Assembly (NCBI GenBank): GCA_022844125.1
Contig: JALHMI010000004.1
Coordinates: 226,777-290,776 of the forward strand
Source of the DNA: Pirellulales bacterium
GTDB taxonomy: Bacteria; Planctomycetota; Planctomycetia; Pirellulales; PALSA-1355
Length of the DNA stretch: 64,000 nucleotides
Reading direction: 5' to 3'
Of this stretch, positions 25,314-44,317 are shown in pieces. The notes under the pieces are model-generated. The model was not told where the DNA came from. It did no database searches and saw only the letters and a list, made by a program, of their open reading frames with translations. Each line of letters begins with the position of its first letter. Position 1 is the stretch's first letter. The position numbers and the translations under genes are program-made.

Positions 25314-25554
25314 TTGTGGAGGTTCCCAAAAAAGGAATTGGCGGCGGTCAGAGTGCACCGCTCCGGTGGAAAGAGGGCGCGGAATCGAGTCGGGGCCAGC
25401 GAAACTGGATCTACCCTGCGCACCAAAAGGGCACAGGTGCGCTACGAATGCGGGGTCGCTCAGTTGACAAGTCGCGGCAATCGGTCCCTTGGCCGCGGTG
25501 GCGCGACAGAGAGAAGGGACACGGAGGTCACTAGCGACTCCAGAAGGAACCAGT

Positions 25555-26664
25555 TCAGCGCGATTGGATGCGCCGTGTGCCTCGCACTCGGCGGGAAACG
25601 ACAATGACGCCTAGGGCGCCGGCTATTGCCAACGCCCAGGAAGTCGGCTCTGGCACGACAGTGGCCACGCGAAATCCGATCCGACCATCCTCTGCAATCG
25701 CGAAATCTGCGTTGCGAGCAGACGCTTGGAGAACTACGTGGGTTCCATCGCCCCACGATCCTCCTCGAATGCCACGGAAATCCGACCCAGAGAAATTGAT
25801 CAGCGCTTCATTCCACTCCCAAACATTCCCGCCCTGGTCGAACGTGCCATAAGGGCTCTGGGAAAGACTGTATGCACCCACCTCTGTAAGGTAATTCTGG
25901 CTCGCGGATGAACTGGGAATACCGGACGCAGCGAACCCATCATCGTATCCGTTTGCGATGCTGTCGTTCTTGAAGAAGTTTCCCGTGTTCGACTGGGAAG
26001 GTGCATCTGCGCCAGGGGGCTGGTCGCTATATGGAGTTGCGTCGGTCGAAGTTGGATAGTCCCAGTAGTTTGCCGTCACGCCGTCATTTTTGTGATAGGC
26101 GGCCTTATACCACTCGTCTTCGGTCGGCAGGAACCACTGAGCTCCAACGCTTCGCGTTACAGCATTCAGCCCTGTGTTCGTGACTGCACCGTTAAGCGAG
26201 TACGCACCTTGTTCTGTGGTACTGGCGTCTTGAGCGCCGGTCGGCTGGCCATTGTGAAGCCAATTTGCAAACCGGGCGGAGTCGCCCCAGCTCACGTAAG
26301 TGACAGGCTTGGACGTGGATCCGATAACGCTATACGAGTAACTGCCCGCTGTGCCACTCCGTGTGATACCGGCCACATTTAGATTGGTCGCCATGGACTC
26401 GTTGTAGAGGCCGTGCGGATCACTGGCGGCAATTGCGTTGAGAAACGCCGTATACTGACCCACCGTTACCTCGTAAGTCCCGATGCGGTACTCGTATGTC
26501 ACACCGCCGGACATGACAACGGGCAGGAAACCTCCTGACAGTTCGCCACCATTCCCGGCGTTCCCGATGACCACCGTATCGATGCTGATAGGTGCAGCAC
26601 TCGCCGCCGTTGGCAAAAGCGCGATCACTCCCAACAACAGGCATTTGGCGTAGCTGCGTTGCAT
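25555..26664 (-). CDS. FGE-sulfatase (SUMF1) domain protein with signal peptide and PEP-CTERM anchor
   Basis: Motifs YRIGTYEVTVGQYTAFLNA, VTYVSWGDSARFANWL and FRGIRGGSW support the domain call. The C-terminus is VPEPTSWALAIAGALGVIVVSRRVRGTRR. Confidence 0.75.
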   Translation of the reverse strand: MQRSYAKCLLLGVIALLPTAASAAPISIDTVVIGNAGNGGELSGGFLPVVMSGGVTYEYRIGTYEVTVGQYTAFLNAIAASDPHGLYNESMATNLNVAGITRSGTAGSYSYSVIGSTSKPVTYVSWGDSARFANWLHNGQPTGAQDASTTEQGAYSLNGAVTNTGLNAVTRSVGAQWFLPTEDEWYKAAYHKNDGVTANYWDYPTSTDATPYSDQPPGADAPSQSNTGNFFKNDSIANGYDDGFAASGIPSSSASQNYLTEVGAYSLSQSPYGTFDQGGNVWEWNEALINFSGSDFRGIRGGSWGDGTHVVLQASARNADFAIAEDGRIGFRVATVVPEPTSWALAIAGALGVIVVSRRVRGTRRIQSR

Positions 26665-26851: not shown

Positions 26852-27520
26852 GTGATGGGAGCGGGGGGCACTATGCGAAAACCCGGCCAGCTCCAATCGA
26901 CCCGAGTGGGGCGGTTTCCGATCCTCTTGCAGGCAGCGCGTAAAGGGTCAGAGGAGGCGCTCGGCCAGTTGCTCGATGCCTATCGATCCTTTCTGCTGTC
27001 CGTCGCCACGTCTCATTTTGACTCCGATCTCAAGGCGAAAGCAGGGCCTTCGGATGTTGTGCAAGAGACGTTCCTGGACGCTTACAAGGACTTCGCCCGC
27101 TTCAAGTCGAACACAGACGAAGAGCTTCGGATATGGCTTCACACGCTCTTGATGAACAACCTGGCCGACCTTCGAAAACGGTACCTGAAGTCAGCCAGCC
27201 GTCAGGTCAAGCGCGAGCGCCCCATCGCCACAAGTGAGTCCAAAGAGTTTGCACGACAGATTATCGACCGCGACGGACACACCCCCAATACCGAAGCTGT
27301 TTCGAAGGAGATGGCCGCGCGCGTCGAAGCGGCACTTCAAGAGTTATCGCCTGCATACCGTATGGTCATTGTGATGCGAAATCACGATCGGCGGTCCTTC
27401 GCCGATATCGGTAAGGCGATGAACAAATCAGCGGATGCCGCCCGGATGCTTTGGAAACGTGCTGTATTGAGGCTCAGACAGCAATTGGGGGAAATCGATG
27501 ACAACCGCAGAGCCACATGA
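26852..27520 (+). CDS. ECF-type RNA polymerase sigma-70 family factor
   Basis: It has a region 2 (DVVQETFLDAYKDFARF) and a region 4 HTH (SFADIGKAMNKSADAARMLWKRAVLRLRQ). The exact start is uncertain. Confidence 0.8.
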   Translation: MMGAGGTMRKPGQLQSTRVGRFPILLQAARKGSEEALGQLLDAYRSFLLSVATSHFDSDLKAKAGPSDVVQETFLDAYKDFARFKSNTDEELRIWLHTLLMNNLADLRKRYLKSASRQVKRERPIATSESKEFARQIIDRDGHTPNTEAVSKEMAARVEAALQELSPAYRMVIVMRNHDRRSFADIGKAMNKSADAARMLWKRAVLRLRQQLGEIDDNRRAT

Positions 27521-30170
27521 CCGCCGGGTCGATGGCGTGGCAACTACCGATGTCGCGTCGTGGCTTGCGACAGAAATGCGGGCCGCTTGCGAGGAGCCCT
27601 TGGACTCAAGCCTCTCCAATGATTCCGCGGTCAAGGCAATCAAGGAATGTGCCCAATTGCTAAGCCGCGTTTGGCCTCTTGGCGGTGCTTCAGGCGAGCA
27701 ACTTCGCTCCGACCGCCCCGCGGAAGGCGTCGATTCTCAGACGATATCGCCCAACTTGTGCGCTGATCTCAGAGGCGATGAGCGCCTCGGACGTTTTGAG
27801 ATTCGCAAACAACTCGGGTATGGCGGCTTCGGCGTTGTGTTTCTCGCCTTCGATCCGCACCTTGGCCGCGAGGCCGCGCTGAAGATTCCAAGGCCCGAAA
27901 TACTCGTGTCATCGCAGTTGCGTCAACGGTTCCTTCGCGAAGCGCACGCCGCCGCACTGCTTGATCACCCAGGCATCGTGCCGATTTATGAGACAGGTGA
28001 GATTGGTCCCATCACCTATATCCTCAGCGCCTACTGCAAAGGACCGACGCTGGCCGCGTGGCTAAAGGAGCGTACCGACCCTGCTACCGCCTTGATCGCC
28101 GCAAGAGTCACTGCGTGTTTGGCCGACGCTGTGCAACATGCACACGACCGAGGTGTCTTGCACCGTGACCTCAAGCCGGCAAATGTCCTTTTGGAGCCGG
28201 GTGAAGGCCTGACTGCGGACTTTCCTTTCTATCCGCGCTTGAGTGACTTTGGGCTGGCGAAGCGCATTGAGTCGACCAACGACTTAACACAGGCGGGTGC
28301 ACTTCTGGGCACGCCTCGGTACATGGCCCCAGAGCAGGCGAGAGGAGATGAACGAAGCGTCGGTGTCCAGACGGACGTCTACTCGCTGGGGATCATCCTC
28401 TATGAGCTTCTGGCCGGAGCGCCGCCAATCATCGGAGGAACAGACCTAGAGACTCTTCGAAAGATTGAGGAAGAGGGGCCATCGGTAGGCCCTCTAAGGA
28501 ACCGATCAGTTCCCGCTGACTTGGAAACGATCTGCCTCAAGTGCCTGGAGAAGCAACCAGCCGGCCGCTATCAGTCCGCTCGCGAATTGGCAGACGATCT
28601 ACGCCGTTTTCTGGCCGGCGATCCCGTACATGCAAGACCGATTGGAGTTCGGGAGCGTCTTGTGCGGTGGTGTTACCGAAAACCTGTGGTAGCGGCCCTT
28701 ACGGTAGGGCTAGCAGCAGCGATCACTGCCGGCGGCATTGCAGCGTCAACACAGTGGCTGCGGGCCGAGCGTAATCTGGTAGCCGCCCGAGAGTCTGAAC
28801 AGCAAGAACAACTTCACCTCGACCAAGCTGAAAAGGCGCTTTTCGAGTTTGCCTGGATCATTGAGGAAAGCTCGCTGTGGAGTGACACGTCCACGTCGGT
28901 TCGAGCCGAGATCGAGGGGCGCCTCAACAAGTACTACAACAGCCACATAGAAACAACTGAAGCTACTCCCCTTTCCGCAGCTATTGAATCATTCTCTGCC
29001 CGATCCGGAGCGCTCAGTGGACAGAATCCCACGCTTGTTGCCGACCAATTTGAGCGCGCCCTGAAGGCATGGTCCGTGGTGTTGTCCGCAAATCCCACGT
29101 CGGCTGAATACCCCCGTGCATATGGCTTGTGCATTTTCAATTACGCACAGTTTCTTTCGCGCGAGGCCGAAAAGGCTGGCGAGGCAGATACGATGACGCC
29201 AATACGTCAACTCATTGCGAGAACCGCAAAAGAGTCTGCACAGGGCGGCCGCGTCCTCTCCACTTTAGCAACTGTGTTGCTGGAGCGAGGAGATATGCAT
29301 TACAACGACCGCGAAGAGCGTCAAGCCCGACAGGCACACGCCGTCGGACTGCTGGCTGCCGAGGAGCTTATACGTCTCTCTTCTAGTCCCGAATACTCGC
29401 TTCTCGCCGCGCGGCTCTATCGAGCCGTGGGCAGCGATCTACGCCGAGCTAATGACGTGCCCGGAGCTTTGCAGTCGGTGCATCGGTCGCGCGAGTTGTT
29501 AGAGCAACTGCCTGCTGAGGATCCGCCCAATCAACATCGGATGGAGGAGCAAGCTGAAGTATATCGACTAATTGGCTTTATGGAGCGAGGTCAAAAGCGC
29601 TACCCGATCGCCCTGGACTGGCTAGGCCAAGCAGTGCGCCTGAACGAGCAACTCGTTGCCGCCAATCGGAACCAATCGTCTTTAATGCGTCTCGCTTCAT
29701 CCCTCGACAACATCGCATCGGTTCATGCTGCCCTCGGACGGAACGACGATGAGTTCAAGGCATTGCGCCAATGCAGGGAAACCATGCGCGAAGCCCTCGC
29801 AATGGGCGACTCTCTGAATCCGCAGGCAAAACGATTCGGCCAGGTTTGTCATCGGCTTGGCAAGCTGGCGAACGAGTTGGGAGATAGTGAGACAGCACGT
29901 TCGGCCTTTGAAGAAGGTGCAGCAGCTTTCGAGAAACTCGCGACTGAGAGAGATCTAACCGCGGACGGGACGCTCAATCGGGCAGAGTGCCACGCGTTTC
30001 TCGCGGCGCACTTGGCAGCGGCTGGCGAAAGGGAGGCAGCAATCGCCTCATATGAGTTAGCCGTGAATTTGCTTAAGCGGACCGGAACCCCTTCTGATGC
30101 CGATCCGAGGCACAAAGATCGATATCGCAAGACGTTGGCATCATTGAATGCGCTGAAGGCGCAGCCCTGA
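27498..30170 (+). CDS. Ser/Thr protein kinase with a TM segment and a TPR-like C-terminal region
   Basis: Kinase motifs are LGYGGFGVVFLA, ALKIPR, HRDLKPANVLL, DFGLAK and GTPRYMAPE. A hydrophobic segment VVAALTVGLAAAITAGGIAA follows, and then long helical repeats. It overlaps the sigma factor gene by 23 nt. Confidence 0.85.
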   Translation: MTTAEPHDRRVDGVATTDVASWLATEMRAACEEPLDSSLSNDSAVKAIKECAQLLSRVWPLGGASGEQLRSDRPAEGVDSQTISPNLCADLRGDERLGRFEIRKQLGYGGFGVVFLAFDPHLGREAALKIPRPEILVSSQLRQRFLREAHAAALLDHPGIVPIYETGEIGPITYILSAYCKGPTLAAWLKERTDPATALIAARVTACLADAVQHAHDRGVLHRDLKPANVLLEPGEGLTADFPFYPRLSDFGLAKRIESTNDLTQAGALLGTPRYMAPEQARGDERSVGVQTDVYSLGIILYELLAGAPPIIGGTDLETLRKIEEEGPSVGPLRNRSVPADLETICLKCLEKQPAGRYQSARELADDLRRFLAGDPVHARPIGVRERLVRWCYRKPVVAALTVGLAAAITAGGIAASTQWLRAERNLVAARESEQQEQLHLDQAEKALFEFAWIIEESSLWSDTSTSVRAEIEGRLNKYYNSHIETTEATPLSAAIESFSARSGALSGQNPTLVADQFERALKAWSVVLSANPTSAEYPRAYGLCIFNYAQFLSREAEKAGEADTMTPIRQLIARTAKESAQGGRVLSTLATVLLERGDMHYNDREERQARQAHAVGLLAAEELIRLSSSPEYSLLAARLYRAVGSDLRRANDVPGALQSVHRSRELLEQLPAEDPPNQHRMEEQAEVYRLIGFMERGQKRYPIALDWLGQAVRLNEQLVAANRNQSSLMRLASSLDNIASVHAALGRNDDEFKALRQCRETMREALAMGDSLNPQAKRFGQVCHRLGKLANELGDSETARSAFEEGAAAFEKLATERDLTADGTLNRAECHAFLAAHLAAAGEREAAIASYELAVNLLKRTGTPSDADPRHKDRYRKTLASLNALKAQP

Positions 30171-30505: not shown

Positions 30506-33500
30506 CTACGAACTCGCGACTACCGAGAATCCCACTTTGAATGTCTCCATCAGGTAGTTTTCGGTGACTGCCAGCAGTTGCAGCTGTTCTGATGAGATGG
30601 CCGCCTTGGACACACCTGGTTGAACGATGACGATGCCAAGAGTAACGGGGCAAAGGCGGCTTTTTTCGATGATTCGGTCGAGATCGTCTTCAGTGCCGAC
30701 CTCGAAGCGTGACTGCTTACGGGCTTTTTCTCTGCGCATCAGATGCAAGAAGAGTTCCGTCGGTTGCTGCATCCAACGTACGCTTCGCTGTGCTTGTCCG
30801 CAGAGTTCGTAAAGGTCCTTGACCCTTGCACCCGCCTGCGGACCACCAGAGAACTTGCAATGCCAGAACTCAACATCAATGGATGACTCTGTTTCCCGGA
30901 TCCCGACGACATCGGCGGCCTCGCCGCTTCCATCGTCGTCCAAGATTGCTGTAAAGTCTCTGGCCTTTAGCTCTTCGATCACTCGAAACTGGATTGTGCC
31001 CGATTTTCGCGTTGGGCCTTGCGACTCCCGCCGAATGTCGACGCCCGTCCAATTCCACACTTCGATGCGGCTTTTGGGAAACGGTGGAGGCAGATGGCGC
31101 AACTCGACCAGCTCGTTTCCGCGCAGCGATGAGCCATCAGCAAACCAGATTGCAGGCGGCGTCGCCGTTAGAAACTCAGCGAGCGTCGTCTCATGTCCAC
31201 CATGCGTAATCTTTGCATCGCCTGCGCTTCGCTGCGTGAACACAAAATCGACTTCCTCCCCGCTCCCAGTGAGCTCAAGTTCGAAAACGGCACGATGCTT
31301 GTCACCTGCAATGGCAACGCGTAACGGCCCCTCCTCTGAAGGATCCTCTATCTCAATGTCCACTTCGTGGAGATAGAATGACTCTGCGCCCAACTGGAAC
31401 TGGACTGCGGTTTCGCTCTCGGTGTAGAACGCTTCTGGCCATTCCGCCGCGATGGGCATGCCTGCCGGGCGCGTGGAAACCATTCTAGGTTGCAGTGTCC
31501 CACGAAGGACCTGTTCGGGATCAAGCGACTCGTCTAAAAGCTTGGTTCCTATAGACCTGCACCATCGAGTGAATTCACGAAGGTTGGTGGTTTGGCGCGA
31601 CCAGATACGACCCTTGTAGGAGCAGCCGATGCTCGTTCGGTGTCCGTCTTCAAAACCCGTTCCGAAGAGATTCGATTTGATCGCCTTGCGTTTCTGTGCC
31701 TCAGAGAGGCCTCCTTCCACGTCGGAGCCGGCCCGCATCGTAAAACGTATGAGCCGACCGAGCGTTTCTATCAGCCCAACATTCTGAAGTCTTAGGCGGT
31801 TCACAGTGGCAAGGCAGCGAAAGATCTCGGCGCCGCGAATAGGGGTCGCCTTTCCTGCAACCGCCTTCGCCAGATCGCGAAAAAACCCCTTGTTGCTCGA
31901 ATTGTGGATAAAGAGGAGCTGTCGTTCCTGATGCCAGAACAGAATGTAGAGCTGCCAGTCCCACGAATAGATCTCGTCAACTCGTGCCCATTCAATCGGC
32001 GCGCGCCTGGCAGTTAAGATGACCAGCGTATTCTCCGCTGGATTCACGTCATGATAGACGCGATCCAGTGTGTCGAACCCGGGAATGCCCTTTGAGAACT
32101 CCTCCGGATTCCAGTTTTCGCATTCGGTTCTGTAGGCGACCGTGCTCATCGCTGGGCGAACGTTATGAAGCGACACATCGTCAGGGAAGCTCTTGAATCC
32201 CGCGATGAATTCGCCAAGCTCGATCTCGCCCTTAATCGCCTTATCGCTGAAGTGCGGAAGCAGTGCATTCCAATCGCCATCACGCCTGTAGAGTTTGCGT
32301 AGTTCGTCCCCTACTTCTACGTCGGCAATATTTGCGATAACTGTCGCGTTACCCAGGCCAGGCTTTGCTCGCGTGAATCGGCCTGCAAGCTGCAATGTCA
32401 CTGGCAAGCTGCGTCGAACGTCGTGAAACGCTGCGATCTTGAGTTCAGGAAGGTCGAACCCTTCGCCAAGCATGTCAACGCATATGACGATCCTCGACTT
32501 ACCGGACAAAATCTGCTCCCGTATCCGAGCCCGCTCGTGCATTGACTTGATGCCGGTGTGGATCTGGACCGGCTTGAATTCTGTGTGCTTGCTATAAAGT
32601 CTGAATACCTCTTCGGCTCGCCGGACGCCACTAACTCGGGCCATTAGAATGTGCCCTTTCGAGAGATCGGCACGCAACTGCGCAACCGCCGCCTCAGCGA
32701 TAGCTGCATCACGTTTTTTTGGATCGAACTCTCGAACTGGCTTGAAATCGATCGGACGAAAATAGCCATCCTGTTGGGCCTGCCGCAGTGAATAGACGAA
32801 GATCACTTGCTCCCCAACCGGCCGCTCATCATTGCGGTAAGGAGTTGCGGTGAATTGTAGGATGCGTGTCTCGCTGAAGCATTTCTTGAAGGCCTCCCAG
32901 GTAGGCGCCCCAACGTGATGCGCTTCGTCGATGAAGAGGTGCGAGCAGTGCGCCGCCATCGCCTCCTGGAGATCCTCGGAACACTGACCGATACCGGCCA
33001 TTGTCGCGACGATCACGTTGCAACTTTCAAATAGTGCGTCAACGTCGCTCTTTGTTTTCGGCCGTCGTTTCAATATGCCGACAATCGGATTACGCGCCCC
33101 TGCCGCAATAACGCCGCATTGACGAAGAATGCCGAGCGATAAGAATTTGTCGGCGATCTGACTCCGCAGTGCATCGGTGGGAACCACGACTAGCAGCCGC
33201 TCGCATTGCGCCGCAACAAGAATCGCAAGCATCGCCTCCGTTTTTCCCGTTCCGGTTGGCATTACGATCGTTGCAGGGTTTTTATGAACCGAGAAATGTC
33301 CCAGGGCGGCATGAACTGCGCCAATTTGTGGAGGTCGCAGCCCAGGAATGTCCGCAGCCTGATCTTCCTTCTGGTACTCAAACCTCCCCGGCCAGGACTT
33401 GCGCGCTTCTGCCACCAACTCCTCCAACGACGGAGTCGCGGCCGGCAGGGATTCCAGAGCAGGATGCCGAACCCATGTGGCCGCGGAAAGTTCAATGCGG

Positions 33501-33775
33501 CGGTCTTGACTGCCGACATTAAAGCCACGGAGCTTTAGGAGATACCTGTCGCTGTATGGTTCACGTGCCGCATTGGTCATGACAACTACAGGATCGCCAA
33601 TCCCATCGCCGTCCAAGAGATATCCCTTGAGACGCCCATTCTCGTACTCGGCAATTCCGACACCACCTGTCCACTGAGGGACCAGCAACTGCTGAACGCC
33701 ATTCCCATCGCGGGAATCGTCGAGGGAGTAGAGCGCCGGAAGCGATGCCGTAATAGTGCTTGGTGCCTTGTTCAT
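30506..33775 (-). CDS. SF2 helicase (ResIII/DEAH-type) with a large C-terminal extension ending in a PD-(D/E)xK-like motif; a putative helicase-nuclease defence protein
   Basis: This is a 1089-aa ORF. Helicase motifs are VMPTGTGKTE (aa 171-180), LFIDEAHHVG, FTATPYRND, DMLGEGFDLPELK and QLAGRFTR. The C-terminal motif is GEAADVVGIRETESSIDVEFWHCKFS (D955, E969, K974 by my count), followed by LCGQAQRS. Confidence 0.75.
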   Translation of the reverse strand: MNKAPSTITASLPALYSLDDSRDGNGVQQLLVPQWTGGVGIAEYENGRLKGYLLDGDGIGDPVVVMTNAAREPYSDRYLLKLRGFNVGSQDRRIELSAATWVRHPALESLPAATPSLEELVAEARKSWPGRFEYQKEDQAADIPGLRPPQIGAVHAALGHFSVHKNPATIVMPTGTGKTEAMLAILVAAQCERLLVVVPTDALRSQIADKFLSLGILRQCGVIAAGARNPIVGILKRRPKTKSDVDALFESCNVIVATMAGIGQCSEDLQEAMAAHCSHLFIDEAHHVGAPTWEAFKKCFSETRILQFTATPYRNDERPVGEQVIFVYSLRQAQQDGYFRPIDFKPVREFDPKKRDAAIAEAAVAQLRADLSKGHILMARVSGVRRAEEVFRLYSKHTEFKPVQIHTGIKSMHERARIREQILSGKSRIVICVDMLGEGFDLPELKIAAFHDVRRSLPVTLQLAGRFTRAKPGLGNATVIANIADVEVGDELRKLYRRDGDWNALLPHFSDKAIKGEIELGEFIAGFKSFPDDVSLHNVRPAMSTVAYRTECENWNPEEFSKGIPGFDTLDRVYHDVNPAENTLVILTARRAPIEWARVDEIYSWDWQLYILFWHQERQLLFIHNSSNKGFFRDLAKAVAGKATPIRGAEIFRCLATVNRLRLQNVGLIETLGRLIRFTMRAGSDVEGGLSEAQKRKAIKSNLFGTGFEDGHRTSIGCSYKGRIWSRQTTNLREFTRWCRSIGTKLLDESLDPEQVLRGTLQPRMVSTRPAGMPIAAEWPEAFYTESETAVQFQLGAESFYLHEVDIEIEDPSEEGPLRVAIAGDKHRAVFELELTGSGEEVDFVFTQRSAGDAKITHGGHETTLAEFLTATPPAIWFADGSSLRGNELVELRHLPPPFPKSRIEVWNWTGVDIRRESQGPTRKSGTIQFRVIEELKARDFTAILDDDGSGEAADVVGIRETESSIDVEFWHCKFSGGPQAGARVKDLYELCGQAQRSVRWMQQPTELFLHLMRREKARKQSRFEVGTEDDLDRIIEKSRLCPVTLGIVIVQPGVSKAAISSEQLQLLAVTENYLMETFKVGFSVVASS

Positions 33776-33849
33776 GTCATGGCGTTCCCGACCGCTTGCA
33801 TAAGAAAAACCGCCCCCGTGATCATGAAACCGCGATGGAGCCCAACCGG

Positions 33850-34365
33850 TTATGGGTGCCGAGAAGTGCTCATTGCTAGCGGCACGAACTTCTCGCCGAC
33901 GCGGTGGAGCACCGCGCCTTCAGGCGGCCATGAATCGCAACAAGCCCTATCAAACGGCGAAGAAGCAGCCGGGCCCCAAAGGGAGGCGCAGTCGCCGCGG
34001 TCATTGTTCCAGACATAGTTGTCGTGGCCAGTGAAGAGATGGAAGTCCGCCCCTTGCAAGTCTTCCGCGCGGAGCACTGACGCCGGCCCCTTCCCGGTGT
34101 GGATTCGCATCGTTTGCGCCGCGCCAAGAGTTCCGCGAAAGCTCATCACCACCTGCCATGTACTTGATCGCCCATCGGCAGCATAGGCAATATGGCAGAG
34201 GCGAACTCCTTCCAGGTCTACCGGTCCTGTGCCCATGTTCTTGATATCTGCCCATTCGGCACCCAACTGTGTTTCGCTCGCACCATTGCGCGATCGATCT
34301 TTTCCGGCTGGGTTGGGCTTCATTCTGACCGTCTGCAGCGTCTTCATCCTTAGATCTCCCTGCAT
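33850..34365 (-). CDS. Small cytoplasmic lamin-tail-domain (LTD)-like protein
   Basis: The sequence VRMKPNPAGKDRSRNG...AEWADIKNMGTGPVDLEGVRLCH...VWNNDRGDCASLWGP fits the LTD pattern (NP.G.D ... EW+.+.N.G...VDL.G..L ... N..GD...L). No signal peptide is seen. It ends 74 nt upstream of the helicase gene on the same strand. The start could be MKTLQTV. Confidence 0.6.
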   Translation of the reverse strand: MQGDLRMKTLQTVRMKPNPAGKDRSRNGASETQLGAEWADIKNMGTGPVDLEGVRLCHIAYAADGRSSTWQVVMSFRGTLGAAQTMRIHTGKGPASVLRAEDLQGADFHLFTGHDNYVWNNDRGDCASLWGPAASSPFDRACCDSWPPEGAVLHRVGEKFVPLAMSTSRHP

Positions 34366-34470
34366 TGGGGTTGGGCCGGTGGACCACCATGGCCTCGGGC
34401 CAAGTGCCCGAATTATCGCGATTCAGATGTCCATGTCAAGTAAACGGTAAACATGCGGTCCAAAAAAATC

Positions 34471-35235
34471 TCAGGAGAAAAGGCTGCGCTCCCGCTTCGG
34501 CAGAATGAGCTTCAATTGCTGCAAACGTATCTGCATCGATACGGCCGAAACCTGAAAACGTTCCGCCAATGGCCGAGCCGCATGCTCCATGAGTCGGTCG
34601 TCCATAGCGGCATCGCCAAGGTTGATCCCGCCTCGACGGGCAAGTTCTTTGGCAAGGAATTCGTCTTGTCGAGTTCGCAACTCTTCTAGGTACATCGGCT
34701 CCATGCCGCCATGCTGCTCGTGCCACTCGCGTTTCACCATCTCACGTGGCATGAGGAGGCAGGCCGCGAAGCGATTGGCTTGGACCTCCTTTGGATCCGA
34801 CTGGCTCGACCGTAGAACGTGGTCTGGAACGGGATCTCCTGATGGCAGCAGTGGACGCTGGCCCCGACGACCAAGATAAAGGTGCCGGTGCAGCTGCCAA
34901 TGACCGAGCTCATGCGCAAGTGTGAAATGATACCGCCCGCGCATGGTGGGGAAATCTTCTGGTACAAGAGTGACGTCAACTGCGATTCGTTTTTCGTCAA
35001 ACCAGATCGCGCCGAGTACATCCCCTTCCGGGTATTCCGCTCGAAGATCTCGGTATTCCACCACGAGCTTGAAATGCTCCTGAACAATGTCATCGATCGG
35101 GACCGGCGGCACCGTTACCGGTTCGCGTGATTGGCCGTACTCAGCCAAGACGAGAGAGGCTTCGTCCTCGAACTCCTGATCGTGCATGAATCGTGGGCCG
35201 GATTTGTCGGCCGGCGAACGCCAGGTGGGCATCAT
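34471..35235 (-). CDS. ImmA/IrrE-family (COG2856) zinc metallopeptidase
   Basis: It has an HExxH motif in FTLAHELGHWQLH and the overall ImmA/IrrE layout. It overlaps the XRE gene by 4 nt. Confidence 0.8.
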   Translation of the reverse strand: MMPTWRSPADKSGPRFMHDQEFEDEASLVLAEYGQSREPVTVPPVPIDDIVQEHFKLVVEYRDLRAEYPEGDVLGAIWFDEKRIAVDVTLVPEDFPTMRGRYHFTLAHELGHWQLHRHLYLGRRGQRPLLPSGDPVPDHVLRSSQSDPKEVQANRFAACLLMPREMVKREWHEQHGGMEPMYLEELRTRQDEFLAKELARRGGINLGDAAMDDRLMEHAARPLAERFQVSAVSMQIRLQQLKLILPKRERSLFS

Positions 35236-35591
35236 GTCCCCTTTCGCTTCATTTGTTCCGCGTCTTCGCGCAATTTGCGAATCTGATCAGCGGTTAGGTT
35301 CTTCAGGGCGCGCAGAAGGTCCGGAACGTCTTTCTTCGATTGAATGATCTCTGGCAAATCCTCCGGCACACGTCCCGCTAGCGCGATCCATTCGTCTGGA
35401 TTCACGTCTAATAGCTCCGCCATCCGTTTCACCCGATCCGCAGTTGGTGGATCAACATTCATCTGCTCAACTTGTGACAAATACGTAGGACTGACCCCAA
35501 CCAACTCTGCAAACTTCCGAAGGCTGACTTCCTTTTCCATCCGTCTTGCACGGAGAGCCTCGCCAAACTTCATGCCACGATGCCTTGTCAT
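35232..35591 (-). CDS. XRE-family helix-turn-helix transcriptional regulator
   Basis: The sequence MKFGEALRARRMEKEVSLRKFAELVGVSPTYLSQVEQ is a classic XRE HTH. The track ORF starts at a GTG at 35651, which overlaps the upstream stop. The ATGs at 35591 or 35573 are more plausible starts. Confidence 0.8.
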   Translation of the reverse strand: MTRHRGMKFGEALRARRMEKEVSLRKFAELVGVSPTYLSQVEQMNVDPPTADRVKRMAELLDVNPDEWIALAGRVPEDLPEIIQSKKDVPDLLRALKNLTADQIRKLREDAEQMKRKGT

Positions 35592-35647
35592 TTTGTTCCG
35601 CAATCTACTTCGCTTGTTGCAATTCGAGTAAATCTCACGACTCACGA

Positions 35648-36682
35648 TCACCCGTCAGGCGAGTCGCCTTTTCGTGCGGACGACGCGAGGCCCTCGGCAA
35701 GCTTTCTGACCAGCTCGGCAAGTCGCACGACCGCGTTTTCTTTCACCACGAGTCGCTGTCCAATGCTGTACGTCCGGTCGGAGCACCGGTCCAAATAATC
35801 TTGGTCCACGATGCCTTCGCAATGGCTCAAAAGATGTCGTTGCTGGAAAAAGATAGTCAACTCGTCCAACTCTGACGGCGACAGGAAATCTTCGTACCTC
35901 TTGCCCGTCGCGGACCTCCAGACAGTCGTGGACTCTCCCAGATTCTGAAACAGATTGCGCCTTACCTTGACTGCCGACCTAGCCGCGAGCGGCTGAAACG
36001 TCGCTTCTGCAAATCGCTGGAAGGACGCAACAAGCTTAACCAACCCGTTCTCAAGAATCTGTCGGGCGGTGTCCGCGGCCGTATCCTTATCGGCGGCTGA
36101 TTCGACGGCGTTTTTTATCGCGGATAGATTTGCAACCGATGCTCGCACCGAATCGACGGCAGCAGCAAAGTTCGTAGGAGCGCTATTGTGGCCACAAGCT
36201 GGACAAAAGAAGGCGGCACCAACTGAACTATAGCGGCAAGCGCACGATTCGCACACGAATCGTTGCCGCATCTCTTCGGCGGCCTTCGGCGGAATTAGTA
36301 GCGTTGGACTTCCGGGCTTGACCGACATCGACATGGAAATCAGCCCACCTCGGGACTGTCGAGTATTGAATGATCGAGCATCCTCCTTCATGGCTCGATT
36401 GACGACGTTCTTCAGGTGCGCCATTGCCGTTTGCTGGATGTGCTCTTGCTGTGCCTCCGTGTTCCATTCGGTGGACACGGCCTCGTTACGACAAATCGGA
36501 CAATAGACAACTTCGTCTCGGACCTTGTCTTTCCAGTCATCAAAGACAACCTTGAATTCTGCCTGGCAGTCTTCTGACGGGCAGCGACGATCCATTTCGC
36601 CGTTCGAATCCAATGGAATCTGAATCGGCACCTTGACGCCCTTTTCAAGCTTTTTCAGTTCCTTGAGAAGCTTGTCGAACAT
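35648..36682 (-). CDS. Zinc-ribbon protein with a C-terminal HEPN-like domain (Rx4H), possibly DUF4145-like
   Basis: The N-terminal half contains Cys pairs (CPSEDC...CPICRNE; CESCAC...CPACGH). The C-terminal part contains FFQQRHLLSHCEGIVDQ, an R-x4-H motif. It sits 3 nt after hsdS and overlaps the XRE ORF. Confidence 0.5.
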   Translation of the reverse strand: MFDKLLKELKKLEKGVKVPIQIPLDSNGEMDRRCPSEDCQAEFKVVFDDWKDKVRDEVVYCPICRNEAVSTEWNTEAQQEHIQQTAMAHLKNVVNRAMKEDARSFNTRQSRGGLISMSMSVKPGSPTLLIPPKAAEEMRQRFVCESCACRYSSVGAAFFCPACGHNSAPTNFAAAVDSVRASVANLSAIKNAVESAADKDTAADTARQILENGLVKLVASFQRFAEATFQPLAARSAVKVRRNLFQNLGESTTVWRSATGKRYEDFLSPSELDELTIFFQQRHLLSHCEGIVDQDYLDRCSDRTYSIGQRLVVKENAVVRLAELVRKLAEGLASSARKGDSPDG

Positions 36683-36685
36683 GAG

Positions 36686-37840
36686 TTAGAGATCTCCTTT
36701 GAAAGCGCGATCTAGGATCGAGGGAAGCAAAGCCTCCTGAGATTTGGCGACTTTTGCCCGTATGTCCCGTGCCGAAGCTACTTTCAATATCAGATCGTCA
36801 AATCGCCGTTGTTCCTCAATTGGCGGCACAGGCACGTTGATATCCAGCATCTTTTTTGAGCTCAAGGTTCGATTCCGATCCGCGCTGCCCGGCGATGCCT
36901 CGCCAATGTGGTAGAGGCCCTCAGGGCTGAGCAAGTAAAAGCAAACGAAATGAGCCGTCGTCAAGCCGTCCACCGGCACAAAGGTTAGGTACCTGTGCGA
37001 ACCATAGCGGCCGTCGTCGTCCGAACCTGCAACGGCGATTGCACCCTCCCATGCTTTGATGTTGCTTACAAGAACGTCGCCGGATTTGACCAGATGTGGT
37101 TTCTGCCAAGTAATCTCACTGCCCCGCAATGGCGGATTATGAAAGGTACCCTTGCCGAATGAACGAACGGAGACTTGCGGGTACTCACGCGCCGGATCGA
37201 TTTCGGCTGGTCGCCGAATAAGCGGAGCAATATCGCCTAAGGGTCGACGTGGTGCCCCTTCTACGATCTTTCTAAATTGAGACATCAAGAGACTCTCGGA
37301 GATGATGTCGCATTCTCTACCCAAGCTTTGAGCGTCATAGACCTTGGCCACGAGGCGGTCGATTCGAGTCAAAATCCGTTGCTGTACGTTCACTGGTGGT
37401 AGAGAGATCGTCAATCGGAGAAATCGATCCTCTTTGAGGCGAACGCGATTTGTCGTGCCCTCGCTTGCACCTCGGCAGCCCTCCACAAATCCGGGGGTCT
37501 TACTGAGCCAGCCGAGAAACGCAGGTAGTAGCCGCGAACGATTCGCATCGAACGTGGGAAAGTCGCTCGTGACCACCGCCCCATCAAGTTCACTCGGAAC
37601 GATCCCCATCGCGCCGTTACGCGCATCGATACGGGATAAGATGAACTGATCGGCTGACACTTTGAAGCGGCGTCCAGATAGTCCAGCGCCAGTCACCTCT
37701 CGACGGAGCACAACCCCGTTTCCCCAAAGGCGGACCGTGACTTCGCGATACGTTTCCGCAGGAGACACACTCGCAACTTGCTCGTTGCGAGTTAGCAATT
37801 CGCCCAGAGGCACCAAGGGCCACCCGTTGTGGTTCGTCAT
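36686..37840 (-). CDS. hsdS: Type I restriction-modification specificity subunit HsdS
   Basis: This is a 384-aa ORF with two TRD-like halves and conserved spacer helices (N-terminal WPLVPLGELL...). It overlaps hsdM by 4 nt. Confidence 0.85.
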   Translation of the reverse strand: MTNHNGWPLVPLGELLTRNEQVASVSPAETYREVTVRLWGNGVVLRREVTGAGLSGRRFKVSADQFILSRIDARNGAMGIVPSELDGAVVTSDFPTFDANRSRLLPAFLGWLSKTPGFVEGCRGASEGTTNRVRLKEDRFLRLTISLPPVNVQQRILTRIDRLVAKVYDAQSLGRECDIISESLLMSQFRKIVEGAPRRPLGDIAPLIRRPAEIDPAREYPQVSVRSFGKGTFHNPPLRGSEITWQKPHLVKSGDVLVSNIKAWEGAIAVAGSDDDGRYGSHRYLTFVPVDGLTTAHFVCFYLLSPEGLYHIGEASPGSADRNRTLSSKKMLDINVPVPPIEEQRRFDDLILKVASARDIRAKVAKSQEALLPSILDRAFKGDL

Positions 37841-39444
37841 CGGCTTGCCCCGGCGAGTTCGGCCTTGATTTCCTCCATGATCTCCATGATGCGCCGTTCT
37901 TTAGCGAGTATGTCATTGGCCAGTTGCAGAGGCGGCAGGTGCTCCAGCGCCTCGGCGCTGTGTGGATTCTTGAGATCGAGATTGCAGGAGATGAGCGTTC
38001 CTGTTTCGTCATACTCAAGTACGTCATCGACTGACACGCGCCATGCATGATCAGACTCGCGTCGGCGCTTGAGCTGAAACCACTTTATGCAGTGGGTGAA
38101 TTCCTCGAATTGAAGTGGCTTCGTCTTCGTATAGCTTCGGCGACCCTCGGGGAGCGGCAGCTCGTAGTACCAAACGTCTTTGGTCGGCCCAGATCGATCA
38201 AAAAACAGAAGATTCGTGGGGATCGCGGTGTAGGGCGAGAACACGCCGTTCGGCAACCGCACGATTGTGTGCAAGTTGAACTCTTTTAAGAGTTCCTCCT
38301 TGATGCGGGCGCACACGCCATCGCCAAATAGCGTGCCGTTCGGTACGACTATCGCTGCTCGACCGCCATGCGGACCACCAGCACCCGGCCGCCTAAGCTT
38401 TCGCATGATGAGTTGAAGGAATAAGAGCGCCGTCTCGCTGGTTTGCTTATCGGCTGGGAAATTGTTTCGGATGCCGGCCTCTTCCTCACCACCGAATGGC
38501 GGGTTGGTGAGGATCACATCCACCCGATCTCGGTCACCGAGCTCTGTAAGCTTCACCGCGAGGCTGTTTCCGTACTCAATTGCGGGAGCATCGAGGCCGT
38601 GAAGCAAGAGGTTCAATTGCGAAAGCATATACGGCAGCGGCTTTGCCTCGCCGCCGCGAATCGATTTGTCTTGCAGGAGTTTTCGGTCTTGCACCGTCGT
38701 ACATTGCTTTTCCAGATGAGTGAAGGCCTCGGCGAGAAAGCCACCTGTCCCGCAGGCTGGGTCAAGAACGACCTCGCCAAGCTGTGGGTTCGTCACAGCA
38801 ACCATAAACTGGATTACCGGCCGCGGCGTGTAGAACTCACCGGAATCACCGGCGGCATCTCGCATTTCACGGAGCATCGACTCGTAAAGCCGGGCTAGAA
38901 CATGAATTTCCTCGGTCGAGTCGAAATGGATGCCGTTGATCAGATTAACGACATCACGCATCAGATACCCAGAAATCATCCGATTAGTAATGCCATCGAA
39001 CGCCGTCGCAATTACTTCGCGGCGACGGTCTCGACCCATCGCCCGGAGGCCGCGAAGGTATGCGAGAAGCCCGGCTCCGCGTTTTCCATTTGGCAGTGTC
39101 GCTTCCTCCTGATTCACGAATGCGATCAGTGCGTCGCCAGTGATGCCGTCTTTCTCCGCGGCCCAATCCCGCCAACGGTACGGAGCTTCGATCGCGGCCT
39201 TGTACTTCGTGCCGCCAATCCCCGCCCGAGCTTCGTCGAGCTTCTCGCGGTCATCCAGGAATTTCAGGAACATGATCCACGTAAGCAAGGGAAGGCGATC
39301 CAAGTCGCCGTTAAGGCCCTTGTCCTTCCGCATAATGTCCCTGGCGGATTTGATGAGCGCTGCCAATTGCTGTGCCGTTGTCTTAGGTTGATCGACCTTG
39401 TGGGGCTTTTTGTTCGCAGCCGTTGTGGCTTTCTTTTTGGCCAT
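37837..39444 (-). CDS. hsdM: Type I restriction-modification N6-adenine DNA methyltransferase HsdM
   Basis: It has an HsdM_N-like N-terminus, a SAM-binding motif VLDPACGTGGFL and a catalytic motif ILTNPPFGG. Confidence 0.9.
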   Translation of the reverse strand: MAKKKATTAANKKPHKVDQPKTTAQQLAALIKSARDIMRKDKGLNGDLDRLPLLTWIMFLKFLDDREKLDEARAGIGGTKYKAAIEAPYRWRDWAAEKDGITGDALIAFVNQEEATLPNGKRGAGLLAYLRGLRAMGRDRRREVIATAFDGITNRMISGYLMRDVVNLINGIHFDSTEEIHVLARLYESMLREMRDAAGDSGEFYTPRPVIQFMVAVTNPQLGEVVLDPACGTGGFLAEAFTHLEKQCTTVQDRKLLQDKSIRGGEAKPLPYMLSQLNLLLHGLDAPAIEYGNSLAVKLTELGDRDRVDVILTNPPFGGEEEAGIRNNFPADKQTSETALLFLQLIMRKLRRPGAGGPHGGRAAIVVPNGTLFGDGVCARIKEELLKEFNLHTIVRLPNGVFSPYTAIPTNLLFFDRSGPTKDVWYYELPLPEGRRSYTKTKPLQFEEFTHCIKWFQLKRRRESDHAWRVSVDDVLEYDETGTLISCNLDLKNPHSAEALEHLPPLQLANDILAKERRIMEIMEEIKAELAGASR

Positions 39445-39448
39445 GTAT

Positions 39449-40198
39449 TCAGTTCACCTTGCTATTCCAATAGGTCCAGAGCCCGTCATCGGGCTGTCCC
39501 GTTGACTTCTTGGGGCGGCGGCCGGCCCAAATCGCCTCAGCGAGTTTCTTGACCTCATTCGCGTCCTTCGGATCCCAACCCATACGAATCAACTGCTGAC
39601 ACATCGAATCGGGACTAGCGGGAGCGTGCTTGTGATACAGCGTCTCTAACGTGCGAATTGCACGCTCGCGATCGCTGGGATGAGTGATCCCTGTGTTGAG
39701 GTTTACTCCATGAGTCAGTGACTCAAGGGCGATAAATGTTGCGCCTGATGTCGGCTCAGACTGTTGGTGCGAGGCCGGTTGGCCAAGCTCGGTTGCTCCC
39801 CACGTTTGAAGCCATTGGTCGCAGTCGCCATCACCCCAAGGAATATAGAGAACGGAGGCACTACCCGAGATCCCGTCGATGGCATCAAGCAACTCTTGCC
39901 CACCGTAGATCGCAAGGATTGGACCGTCGAAGCTATAGATCTGCGTCCCCTTCAAGGTCATCAGCCTCAGCTGCACCCCTTGAACGGTCGCGGTTCCGTT
40001 TTGACGCAATTGGTTGAACAAACCCGCGAGCTGGCTCCAATTCGCAATGTTCTCCAGATTGCTCTTCGTCGAAACAGCAACAATGCCCGCGTTCCCTGAT
40101 TTCTTTGCCTCGGCCAAGAGCCATTGGACGCCTTGCACAATCGCTTGGTCCTGAGGACCGGTGGATGAGACAAAATGTGAAATCCCCTTGCGAGTCAT
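39449..40198 (-). CDS. Hypothetical protein embedded between hsdR and hsdM
   Basis: This is a 249-aa ORF. It lies 13 nt after hsdR and ends 4 nt before hsdM. I recognise no motif. It shows an alternating beta-alpha-like pattern (GIVAVSTKS, PILAIYGG, VLYIPWGDGD). Confidence 0.5.
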   Translation of the reverse strand: MTRKGISHFVSSTGPQDQAIVQGVQWLLAEAKKSGNAGIVAVSTKSNLENIANWSQLAGLFNQLRQNGTATVQGVQLRLMTLKGTQIYSFDGPILAIYGGQELLDAIDGISGSASVLYIPWGDGDCDQWLQTWGATELGQPASHQQSEPTSGATFIALESLTHGVNLNTGITHPSDRERAIRTLETLYHKHAPASPDSMCQQLIRMGWDPKDANEVKKLAEAIWAGRRPKKSTGQPDDGLWTYWNSKVN

Positions 40199-42833: not shown

Positions 42834-43445
42834 ATGCAAATGACCTATCGCTCCACTAAAGCCGCTCGTCGTGAGCTTTCCGCTCTTGCCCAGGGCCAGG
42901 GCGGCTACTTTACCGCGAAGCAAGCAGCGGAGATTGGCTACGACTATCCGCATCTGGACTACCACGTCCAGGCCGGCAATTTCGAGCGAGCCGGCCACGG
43001 CCTCTATCGGCTGCCGGAGATTCCTCAGTCCGAGCACGACGATCTTGTGCGTCTCGCTTTTTGGAGCCGCAACCGCAGCGACCAACCACAGGCTGTCGTC
43101 TCCCATGCGACGGCACTTGCCCTGCATGGCCTTTCGGACCTTCTACCCAACAGGGTCCACATCACGGTTCCGCCGGGCTTCCGCAAACCCGCCCCGAAAG
43201 GCGCAGTAATTCGACGGGCTCGGCTGGCTCCTTCTGATATCCAAGAACGTGAAGGGTTCCTAGTCACCACGCCCCTTCGCAGCATCCACGATGCAGCGAG
43301 TGATCCCTCTATCTCCGAAGAGCACCTAGAGCGAGCAGTGGTCGATGCAATTCAACGAGGACTCGTGCGGCGCTCTAAGCTCGTCGCCCTGGCAAAGACA
43401 CAGTCCGAGAAAAGGCTTTCGCGAGCTCTTGATGCTGCGCGATAA
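42834..43445 (+). CDS. abiEi: AbiEi-family antitoxin/transcriptional regulator
   Basis: The N-terminus LSALAQGQGGYFTAKQAAEIGYDYPHLDYHVQAGNFERAGHGLYRL is AbiEi_4-like. It ends 8 nt upstream of an AbiEii gene. Confidence 0.75.
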   Translation: MQMTYRSTKAARRELSALAQGQGGYFTAKQAAEIGYDYPHLDYHVQAGNFERAGHGLYRLPEIPQSEHDDLVRLAFWSRNRSDQPQAVVSHATALALHGLSDLLPNRVHITVPPGFRKPAPKGAVIRRARLAPSDIQEREGFLVTTPLRSIHDAASDPSISEEHLERAVVDAIQRGLVRRSKLVALAKTQSEKRLSRALDAAR

Positions 43446-43453
43446 TCGGCTCA

Positions 43454-44317
43454 ATGGCAAAGTCATTCAATTCCGCAGCCGCGTTCCGGATGTCGCTCGA
43501 AGAGCGGCTACGACAAGCAGCCTCCCAGCGCGGCATGCCGATCAATTCGCTTCGGCTCAAAGTAGTCATGGAGCGACTCCTTGCACGTCTTTTCGCCGAC
43601 GATACATCGCCTTGGCTCCTCAAGGGCGGCTATGCAATGGAGCTCAGGTATCGCCCGAGAGCCCGCACGACAAGGGACATTGACCTCGCCATAAGGTCCG
43701 GTGAGTTTAAGGCTACTTCCCAAATTGAAGCAATTCGCGAAGAAATCCAACAGGCCGCCGACCAAGACCTTAGCGACTTTCTCGTGTTTCAGATCGGCAG
43801 TGCCAGCACGGAACTACAGGGTGCACCTGACGGTGGCGCTCGGTATCCGGTCATCGCGCTCCTCGCTGGAAAGCCATTTGCCAGATTTCACCTTGACGTG
43901 GGGATTGGAGATCCCGTACTCCCTTCCCCCGAAGCGTTGGTCGGCGAGGATTTTCTCGGCTTCGCAGGCCTTCCGCCGGCACGCGTACTTGCCATTTCAA
44001 GGGCTCAGCAGTTTGCCGAGAAGCTCCACGCCTACACATTCCCCTGGAATGACCGAGCCAATACGAGAACAAAGGACCTGGTCGACCTGGTTCTGCTCAT
44101 AACAAGCGGATCGCTTGATTCTGCAGCGGTCAGTTCAGCAATCGAGGCCACGTTCAAGGCACGTGATACGCACTCGCTCCCGACCAATCTTCCCGAACCG
44201 CCAATTTCTTGGTCCCCGTCGTTCCGCGAGATGGCGATAGAAGTTCAGCTTCCTTCTGTCGATCTAGGAGATGCGTTCGCAATAGTCGACGCTTATTGGC
44301 AGCAAAAATTGACGTGA
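43454..44317 (+). CDS. abiEii: AbiEii/AbiGii nucleotidyltransferase toxin (DUF1814)
   Basis: The sequence FRMSLEERLRQAA...RLKVVMERLLARLF...WLLKGGYAMELRY...RTTRDIDL is the characteristic DUF1814 N-terminal NTase motif. Confidence 0.8.
   Translation: MAKSFNSAAAFRMSLEERLRQAASQRGMPINSLRLKVVMERLLARLFADDTSPWLLKGGYAMELRYRPRARTTRDIDLAIRSGEFKATSQIEAIREEIQQAADQDLSDFLVFQIGSASTELQGAPDGGARYPVIALLAGKPFARFHLDVGIGDPVLPSPEALVGEDFLGFAGLPPARVLAISRAQQFAEKLHAYTFPWNDRANTRTKDLVDLVLLITSGSLDSAAVSSAIEATFKARDTHSLPTNLPEPPISWSPSFREMAIEVQLPSVDLGDAFAIVDAYWQQKLT

Follow-up and report, generated by a model that had tools for sequence, protein, structure and literature searches.

A lamin-tail-domain gene that accompanies M78 peptidase switches ahead of variable defence cargo, and a widespread helicase family with a nuclease-like C-terminus

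The window analysed here, a stretch of 64,000 nucleotides (nt) of contig JALHMI010000004.1 from a Pirellulales bacterium, carries a closely spaced row of minus-strand genes comprising hsdR, an open reading frame (ORF) of 249 amino acids (aa), hsdM, hsdS, a 344-aa ORF, an XRE-family gene, an M78 peptidase gene, a small lamin-tail-domain (LTD) gene and a gene for a 1089-aa helicase. An earlier, sequence-only reading had presented the last two genes as a two-gene defence module. Comparison of LTD and helicase loci shows that the LTD gene follows M78 genes irrespective of the gene behind it, and the claim of a novel LTD–helicase pair is misleading if taken at face value. We propose, with somewhat more confidence than doubt, that a CapH/CapP-like switch controls a strong promoter ahead of the LTD gene and an autonomous helicase-nuclease cargo, which would make the locus a regulated site for cargo genes at the margin of a defence island.

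The lamin-tail-domain gene and its M78 switches

The genes and sites at the centre of this analysis are:

35232–35651, minus strand: XRE-family helix-turn-helix (HTH) repressor, CapH-like (Pfam HTH_31/HTH_3; PADLOC capH, E = 1.5e-11)
34471–35235, minus strand: M78 (ImmA/IrrE/CapP-like) zinc peptidase, 254 aa (Pfam Peptidase_M78, E = 6.9e-13; PADLOC capP, E = 3.6e-22)
34440–34453, minus strand: tandem direct repeat TGTTTAC-C-GTTTAC abutting the −35 hexamer, candidate operator (read from the sequence)
34412–34439, minus strand: near-consensus sigma-70-type promoter TTGACA-16-GATAAT in the gap between the M78 and LTD genes (11 of 12 consensus positions)
33850–34365, minus strand: LTD ORF, small cytoplasmic lamin-tail-domain protein, 171 aa (ORF list)
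30506–33775, minus strand: helicase ORF, 1089 aa (ORF list)

Among LTD loci, 80 of which were contributed by a scan of JGI metagenome contigs with 209 matches confirmed by tblastn, an M78 gene is found no more than 2.5 kb upstream of the LTD gene in 28 of the 36 informative loci (those with at least 2.5 kb of upstream sequence) when a strict profile is used. The count rises to 30 of 36 with the inclusion of L149 and L151, whose M78 genes were found by phmmer, and BLAST clustering, which also catches the XRE partner, gives 34 of 38 LTD loci. By comparison, M78 genes occur in 3 of the 80 helicase genome loci, the 80 closest from a set of at least 570 candidates, and are never adjacent to the helicase gene (Fisher p = 1.7e-16, LTD versus helicase loci). 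Additionally, in all four LTD contexts that were looked up by protein, the operon directly upstream is divergent and encodes a sigma-70 region-2 protein, a small acidic protein of about 130 aa and a Peptidase_M78 protein, with no helicase present. According to the strict profile, 29 LTD loci have a divergent layout and seven have co-directional M78 and LTD genes as in the window, an XRE gene being detected upstream of the M78 gene in some of these seven. The LTD gene occurs in at least two regulator architectures, namely sigma factor, small acidic protein and CapP, or XRE and M78; in one of the related loci (L088), the peptidase matches capP across the full profile (E = 1.3e-41).

The genes that follow the LTD gene are variable. 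They include DUF1883 or DUF2188 mini-proteins, with which the LTD gene then stands alone; type II systems of the cyclic-oligonucleotide-based antiphage signalling type (CBASS), with CD-NTase, Cap2 and Cap3 and with SAVED, patatin or TIR effectors; Bub-type DUF6791-ThiF operons; Shedu SduA; an AriA/PtuA-like ATPase; AbiEii; and the candidate families PDC-M36A and PDC-M48B. A helicase is present in 3 of the 61 LTD loci that have at least 600 nt of downstream sequence. Because the LTD gene accompanies M78 switches regardless of cargo, its product is best regarded as part of the switch or of its output and not as a dedicated helicase subunit. In open-access full text, the lamin tail domain or PF00932 was found linked neither to anti-phage defence nor to CBASS or M78 switches, and a lamin-tail protein is mentioned neither by Lau et al. 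2022 (10.1101/2022.04.27.489752) nor by Calloji et al. 2026 (PMC13228613); the link of the LTD gene to the M78 switch appears to be undescribed.

Both ORFs of the proposed module lie on the same strand, 74 nt apart, and the homologue families of each show that both genes are real. The motif strings quoted for them (KPNPAGKD, EWADIKNMGTGPVDLEGVRL, NNDRGDCASLW, VMPTGTGKTE, DEAHH, QLAGRFTR, GEAADVV...VEFWHCK and GQAQRS) are all found in the translations. The smaller protein had been described as a 171-aa LTD-like protein lacking a signal peptide. The ORF and the family-level LTD assignment stand, and no hydrophobic N-terminal segment is visible in the protein sequence, whereas the length is to be revised: judging by the starts of homologues, the gene probably begins at the ATG at 34347 (MKTLQ...) and would encode 165 aa. 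The window copy scores 25.9 bits against PF00932 (E = 1.3e-5), under the Pfam cut-off of 34.3. Since PF00932 is matched at E <= 0.01 by all 34 aligned members of the family (best 1.9e-11), the LTD call is sound at the family level. The family consists of 56 clusters of about 165 aa with 37–89% identity, and its own invariant polar residues are K22, D23, R24, H58, R87, H89, N120, D125 and D139. Searches of PDB sequences with the LTD protein and with the family profile returned no meaningful match.

The earlier description of a defence cluster downstream of an XRE/ImmA switch is borne out, in that the XRE and M78 proteins match capH and capP and a type I restriction–modification (R-M) operon lies upstream. 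The XRE and M78 genes share a 4-nt overlap, and the likely true start of the XRE gene is the ATG at 35573, predicted to give a protein of 113 aa, the length of the gene call in the syntenic locus L081. The window M78 protein is matched by positions 19–126 only of the 242-position capP profile, with about 80 residues beyond the peptidase domain, and is 61% identical to the M78 protein encoded upstream of the LTD gene in L105.

The gap between the M78 gene and the LTD ORF measures 105 nt, and the promoter within it is kept in L081. In L105, the promoter has the same build, with a T-run, two TGTTTAN direct repeats abutting TTGACA, a 16-nt spacer and (G/A)ATAAT (AATAAT in L105); its repeat, TGTTTAG-T-GTTTAG, lies about 80–95 nt upstream of the LTD start and likewise abuts the −35 hexamer. 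Other co-directional loci carry differing tandem repeats at the same site, for example GCGGATTA twice in L132 and L154. From their position, we infer that the tandem repeats at LTD promoters are candidate repressor operators; a search for short-range inverted repeats around the window promoters found none in the intergenic regions. No terminator-like site is present on the minus strand in the LTD–helicase interval, and co-transcription of the two genes is likely. In the sigma-type loci (L083–L100 and L117), on the other hand, the region between the sigma and LTD genes contains an inverted pair, CTTAAC(N)G...A-rich stretch of about 30 nt...C(N)GTTAAG, common to 14 otherwise diverged loci. CGTA follows beyond this motif at 7 nt on the sigma side and at 7 or 17 nt on the LTD side, and with these spacings GTTAAG...CGTA does not read as a simple −35/−10 promoter of an extracytoplasmic-function (ECF)-type sigma factor. 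The CTTAAC...GTTAAG pair would be a shared regulatory motif, the divergent sigma and LTD units being evidently co-regulated.

One LTD locus, in Gemmata sp. IIL30 (L084, 6892–12504, minus strand), has its LTD gene convergent with a Bub-type operon (BubE, DUF6791-ThiF, Multi_ubiq). This operon also encodes a 1139-aa protein with UvrD-helicase and PDDEXK_1 domains and a weak Peptidase_M78 match, that is, a helicase-nuclease fused to an M78 peptidase.

The helicase family and the island around it

The 1089-aa protein is divided into four regions:

33356–33775, minus strand: N-terminal region, aa 1–140 (no Pfam match; conserved in the family)
32336–33340, minus strand: superfamily 2 (SF2) helicase/translocase core, aa 146–480 (GTGKT with K178, DEAH, QLAGRFTR)
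31034–32305, minus strand: central beta-rich region, aa 491–914 (AlphaFold2 model of aa 491–1089, pLDDT 82.9)
30509–31033, minus strand: PD-(D/E)xK-like domain, aa 915–1089 (structural model and invariant residues)

Its assignment to the SF2 helicases is confirmed by Pfam, with ResIII (4.8e-23), DEAD and Helicase_C matches that all fall within aa 146–470 and with nothing elsewhere in the protein. The best PDB sequence match of the core is RadD (6jde, E = 8.6e-12). PADLOC profiles match the motor in part, namely PbeA (1.6e-13), DpdF and Cas3, and the NCBIfam family dnd_restrict_1 (TIGR04095) is matched at E = 4.9e-10 with 39 bits against a cut-off of 600. A Foldseek search of the PDB with the whole model of aa 491–1089 (599 aa) gave nothing significant and a weak FokI match only, the central beta-rich region being without a recognisable fold match. 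Full-length homologues, some 1090 aa long with 40–92% identity, number more than 5000 and come from Acidobacteriota, Planctomycetota, Bacteroidota, Proteobacteria, Bacillota, candidate phyla radiation bacteria and archaea, and a sister family of about 970 aa, lacking the first ~100 residues of the window helicase, has more than 4000 homologues. The literature offered nothing relevant on PDC-S71, and the family is not a named PADLOC system, its PADLOC matches being limited to the partial ones in the motor and a weak PDC-S71 match at aa 930–1009.

The C-terminal domain is modelled with confidence (pLDDT 89). Its best structural matches in the PDB are FokI chains (2fok; probability 0.93–0.96, TM 0.48–0.49, E = 0.05–0.06), followed at lower rank by Shedu, XPF, Mus81, HerA-DUF, AF1548 and Exo5, and also by T7 endonuclease I-like proteins. 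In BFVD, an uncharacterised phage protein comes first (E = 1.5e-3) and a viral HamA C-terminal domain protein second (probability 0.85), and several further matches are annotated as PD-(D/E)xK or restriction endonucleases. The model shows the order of elements sought in the PD-(D/E)xK superfamily, and its matches are clearly enriched for that superfamily, with TM at most 0.49 and none of them formally significant. Residues E952, D955, H972, K974 and Q994 are invariant in all 253 aligned helicase-family members; D955 starts strand 2, and H972-C-K974 ends strand 3 in place of (D/E)xK. The PD-(D/E)xK-like C-terminus proposed earlier agrees with the superfamily of the best structural matches, yet no match falls below E = 1e-3 and strand 3 carries HxK. 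Likewise, D955 and K974 of the suggested D955/E969/K974 triad hold throughout the family, whereas residue 969 is variable (E in 152, D in 34, Q in 15 and K in 10 of the 253 sequences). As modelled, the domain would be a non-canonical, degenerate PD-(D/E)xK variant for which catalysis is plausible. An exhaustive search of representative sequences with this domain yielded 1193 matches; the 150 listed all belong to the same family or are fragments of it, and no alternative domain architecture was seen among those 150 of 1193.

The helicase genome loci were found with an alignment of the family as query, a single-sequence query giving no match. A profile search for LTD genes in the 80 loci found none (0/80), nor does any of the five informative loci from close relatives and the sister family contain one. 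The LTD gene is missing beside the relatives with 75%, 59% and 58% identity and from the three sister-family loci examined, and among close relatives only the 92%-identical one, on a syntenic contig, has it. The co-conservation expected of a two-gene module essentially fails.

No gene family neighbours the helicase in more than 4 of the 80 loci. The neighbours include type I HsdR, type III Mod/Res, HmaC/DUF499 with HEPN, UG5-type reverse transcriptases, GajB, PtuA, AbiEii, AIPR and integrases, and the 75%-identical relative adjoins a prokaryotic Argonaute (pAgo) gene with that of a DpnII-MboI-family (PF18742) protein. Members of the sister family lie after dndBCDE, beside a reverse transcriptase and a large UvrD-like protein, and beside Wadjet genes. 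The absence of a recurrent neighbour, together with these surroundings, indicates that the helicase family is an autonomous defence-island gene; its members lie in defence islands and not in housekeeping contexts.

In L001 (7–9273) and L010 (80–9279), the helicase gene directly follows a gene of ~820–840 aa and an HmaC/DUF499 ATPase with N-terminal HEPN_Swt1 (PADLOC HmaC, E = 0), where it occupies the helicase position of an Hma-type system. In L173 (1–7898), a sister-family helicase, 70% identical to that of L105, lies 83 nt after dndB-dndC-dndD-dndE on the same strand. This helicase may be the restriction partner of the phosphorothioate modification system, which fits the weak PbeA and dnd_restrict_1 matches of the window protein.

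Upstream of the switch in the window, the minus-strand row contains the following genes, of which the hsd genes are identified through the Pfam-annotated syntenic locus L081:

40212–42569, minus strand: hsdR (type I R-M)
39449–40198, minus strand: 249-aa ORF between hsdR and hsdM, inserted in the type I R-M operon
37837–39444, minus strand: hsdM
36686–37840, minus strand: hsdS
35648–36682, minus strand: 344-aa ORF after hsdS, with CxxC zinc-ribbon motifs (PADLOC candidate PDC-M14A, E = 8.5e-14)

The 249-aa ORF (39449–40198) has no family match, and the literature offered nothing relevant on PDC-M14. L081 retains the 344-aa gene as one of 342 aa, and its hsdR–hsdM gap is 50 nt long without a gene call. 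The island extends farther upstream, with an AbiEi/AbiEii toxin–antitoxin pair at 42834–44317 (plus strand) and, at 44392–50398 (minus strand), a 1507-aa Strawberry-notch-like helicase (AAA_34 and Helicase_C_4) followed by ORFs of 223 and 273 aa that have no Pfam match. On the other side, genes for an ECF-type sigma factor and an 890-aa Ser/Thr kinase with tetratricopeptide repeats (26852–30170, plus strand) are convergent toward the helicase gene. In L088 (6718–9196, minus strand), the LTD gene is followed directly by a convergent kinase gene and a 204-aa gene, without an intervening helicase; the recurrence of a kinase in the window and in L088 may be a coincidence in kinase-rich Planctomycetes-like genomes. 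Just outside the island, 22458–26664 (minus strand) encodes a 1048-aa repeat protein and a 369-aa protein with a formylglycine-generating-enzyme (FGE)-sulfatase domain, of secreted or PEP-CTERM type. Both terminate in a VPEP...hydrophobic...RRR sorting signal and represent ordinary host context.

Proposed mechanism and rival explanations

By homology with CapH/CapP, DdrO/IrrE and ImmR/ImmA, the XRE repressor would silence the strong promoter between the M78 and LTD genes. DNA damage or infection would then produce an activating signal (single-stranded DNA in the case of CapP), upon which the M78 peptidase would cleave the repressor. The LTD gene is the first gene under the promoter and, as comparative genomics shows, the regular companion of the M78 switch whatever the regulator architecture or the downstream gene; at a guess, its product may be induced by damage and play an accessory part by binding nucleic acid or some other ligand. 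The 1089-aa protein, a member of a large and phylogenetically scattered family, would serve as an autonomous single-polypeptide effector, as its surroundings in part show, in which an SF2 translocase follows an N-terminal domain and is itself followed by a beta-rich middle region and a degenerate PD-(D/E)xK-like C-terminal domain. By analogy with type III/ISP restriction enzymes, Hna or a fused Hachiman, it may translocate on DNA and cleave it, and it would stand under damage-inducible control here, as CBASS and Bub operons would at other loci.

More tentatively, as a joint possibility that we put at rather less than even, the LTD protein may be a third component of CapP/ImmA-type M78 immune switches (characterised members of which sense single-stranded DNA) that has so far escaped notice, or else their universal first output, acting generically and not with one effector, while the helicase may be the first to be described from a very large defence family of stand-alone helicase-nucleases that, together with the ~970-aa sister family, is absent from PADLOC. 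Such generic action would consist, for example, in licensing, amplifying or resetting the damage signal, or in stalling the cell.

Several points weigh against the proposal of a switch driving the LTD gene and an autonomous cargo. The window M78 protein corresponds to the peptidase (N-terminal) half of the capP profile only, and sensing of single-stranded DNA through a GAF-like domain cannot be assumed from its sequence; moreover, the window XRE and M78 genes are co-directional with the cargo, whereas canonical capH/capP genes are divergent from it. On the side of the effector, the modelled C-terminal domain has neither a structural match beneath the E-value named above nor a canonical (D/E)xK motif. 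As for sampling, LTD-linked helicases beyond the closest 80 loci are under-sampled, and many LTD loci are on short contigs, the M78 counts covering those with sufficient upstream sequence. Finally, the LTD–helicase arrangement recurs, and its four recurrences could reflect a direct interaction of the two proteins.

That last point is the strength of the view that the LTD protein and the helicase form a dedicated two-protein defence system, with the former as sensor, adaptor or inhibitor of the helicase-nuclease. An LTD gene precedes a helicase-family gene in four independent loci (the window together with L081, L105, L138 and L160), on the same strand and at gaps ranging from 6 nt (L105) and 15 nt (L160) to 74 nt in the window and 285 nt (L138). 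The helicases of the other three are just 28–41% identical to that of the window (L105, a sister-family member, 28.5%; L160, 41%; in L138, an N-terminal fragment with a divergent regulator layout), which suggests repeated selection for the pairing. However, LTD genes are absent from the 80 helicase loci and the five informative loci of relatives, helicases are found in 3 of 61 LTD loci, and LTD genes precede CBASS, Bub, Shedu or AbiE genes or stand alone with DUF1883 or DUF2188. In line with this, the window helicase is 50–58% identical to stand-alone helicases of other phyla, far closer than to the L105 helicase, so the helicases behind LTD genes were recruited independently. Independent recruitment points to a preference for this kind of effector under the switch and is no argument for an obligate complex. 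The association is not random, and shared regulation explains it best; we consider a dedicated pair unlikely.

Much the same doubt attaches to a DNA-damage repair regulon, serving repair and not immunity, in which an IrrE/DdrO-like switch would induce a RadD/XPB-like repair helicase and a DNA-binding LTD protein. Switches of this type are known to sense DNA damage (PMC10904395; 10.1101/2022.04.27.489752), and, among solved structures and NCBIfam families, the helicase core finds its best matches in RadD, XPB and UvrB. These matches, however, are limited to the generic SF2 core and lie far under the cut-offs (56 bits versus 720), the family is patchy, without housekeeping synteny, amid R-M, pAgo, defence-associated reverse transcriptase (DRT), Wadjet and Dnd genes, and the other cargos behind LTD genes are abortive-infection systems. 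Slightly less likely again, in our estimate, the helicase-nuclease is a modification-reading restriction subunit of whichever system adjoins it (in the window the type I R-M, at other loci Dnd, Hma or type III), and the XRE, M78 and LTD genes are an unrelated insertion. Such a role would suit L003, in which a close HsdR/M/S set (HsdM, E = 1e-227) precedes the helicase; L049, with the helicase between an HsdM match and ORFs named HsdS and HsdR by size and position; L057, L068 and L076, in which the helicase abuts ORFs of type III Mod/Res size (Pfam confirming the methylase in L068 and Res in L076); the HmaC-linked and dndBCDE-linked members in L001, L010 and L173; and the weak PbeA and dnd_restrict_1 profile matches. 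Nevertheless, most helicase loci have no adjacent methyltransferase or Dnd genes, an HsdM-like gene lies within 6 kb in only 7 of the 80, and R-M loci are general hot spots for defence genes.

To our knowledge, damage-sensing protease switches are one of the few transcription-level controls of bacterial immune operons. A conserved, cargo-independent extra gene at the junction of switch and cargo would offer a new handle on how such switches work, or on the first response of cells when they fire. The helicase family is abundant in bacteria and archaea and resides in defence islands without a named counterpart in PADLOC; if it were a regulated toxic DNA-targeting effector, a major single-gene defence system would be gained. 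Further work would best be directed at the association of LTD genes with the switch and at the unnamed helicase family.

Comparison with known systems

The type III Res, type ISP, dnd_restrict_1 (TIGR04095) and PbeA proteins resemble the window helicase in joining a ResIII-type motor to a C-terminal endonuclease-like domain, often beside modification systems. The window protein differs in scoring far under the family cut-offs, in a C-terminal domain without an RE_endonuc (PF19778) match and in usually having no partner methyltransferase, and PADLOC gives no REase_III match for it. We do not place it among the type III or Dnd-associated restriction helicases, given 39 bits where TIGR04095 requires 600 and a modification partner in a minority of loci.

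Hachiman likewise combines an SF2 helicase with a nuclease of the PD-(D/E)xK fold, and the C-terminal domain of the window protein shows a fold-level likeness to a HamA C-terminal domain protein. In Hachiman, however, the HamA nuclease and the HamB helicase are two separate proteins, whereas the window encodes one polypeptide. Membership is rejected on profile evidence: no DUF1837 or HamA match was found with Pfam or PADLOC, and the HamB profile matches the window helicase only marginally (E = 8.6e-4, aa 123–213, about 90 residues).

Hna is an 845-aa protein with a DinG/XPD-like helicase and a canonical nuclease active site at K729 (Sather et al. 2023; PMC13381803). Hna and the window protein are both single polypeptides from a stand-alone defence gene, and each has its SF2 helicase toward the N-terminus and a domain of PD-(D/E)xK type, in the window protein a putative one, at the C-terminus. 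The window protein, in contrast, has 1089 aa, a ResIII/RadD-like core, an extra N-terminal domain, a beta-rich insert of about 420 aa and an E..D..HxK..Q motif. It has no sequence match to Hna beyond generic motifs, its only DinG-type match being to the CRISPR type IV-associated DinG profile (aa 147–210), and it is rejected as an Hna member on account of its ResIII/RadD/XPB core, its different length and domain order, and HxK instead of (D/E)xK.

The LTD protein family shares a PF00932-type domain with an NPxGxD...EW motif with the LTDs of bacterial secreted nucleases and surface proteins. Unlike these, its members are lone domains, about 165 aa long, that lack a signal peptide and are encoded beside M78 switches.

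For the switch, the nearest counterpart is CapH/CapP, whose mechanistic relatives are DdrO/IrrE and ImmR/ImmA and whose canonical genes are divergent from their cargo. Its peptidase is characterised by a GAF-like C-terminal domain that binds single-stranded DNA and by a cysteine-switch loop. The window resembles it in an XRE-type HTH gene followed by an M78 (PF06114) gene beside a defence operon, with matches to both the capH and capP profiles. CapH/CapP acts as the DNA-damage-activated switch of CBASS, with 24 systems carrying an added sigma-70-family factor (Lau et al. 2022, 10.1101/2022.04.27.489752), and related LTD loci, with a full-profile capP match, a sigma factor and CBASS downstream, are built like these 24. 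The window differs in its co-directional pair and cargo, in a capP match confined to the N-terminal half of the profile and in the LTD gene interposed between regulator and cargo.

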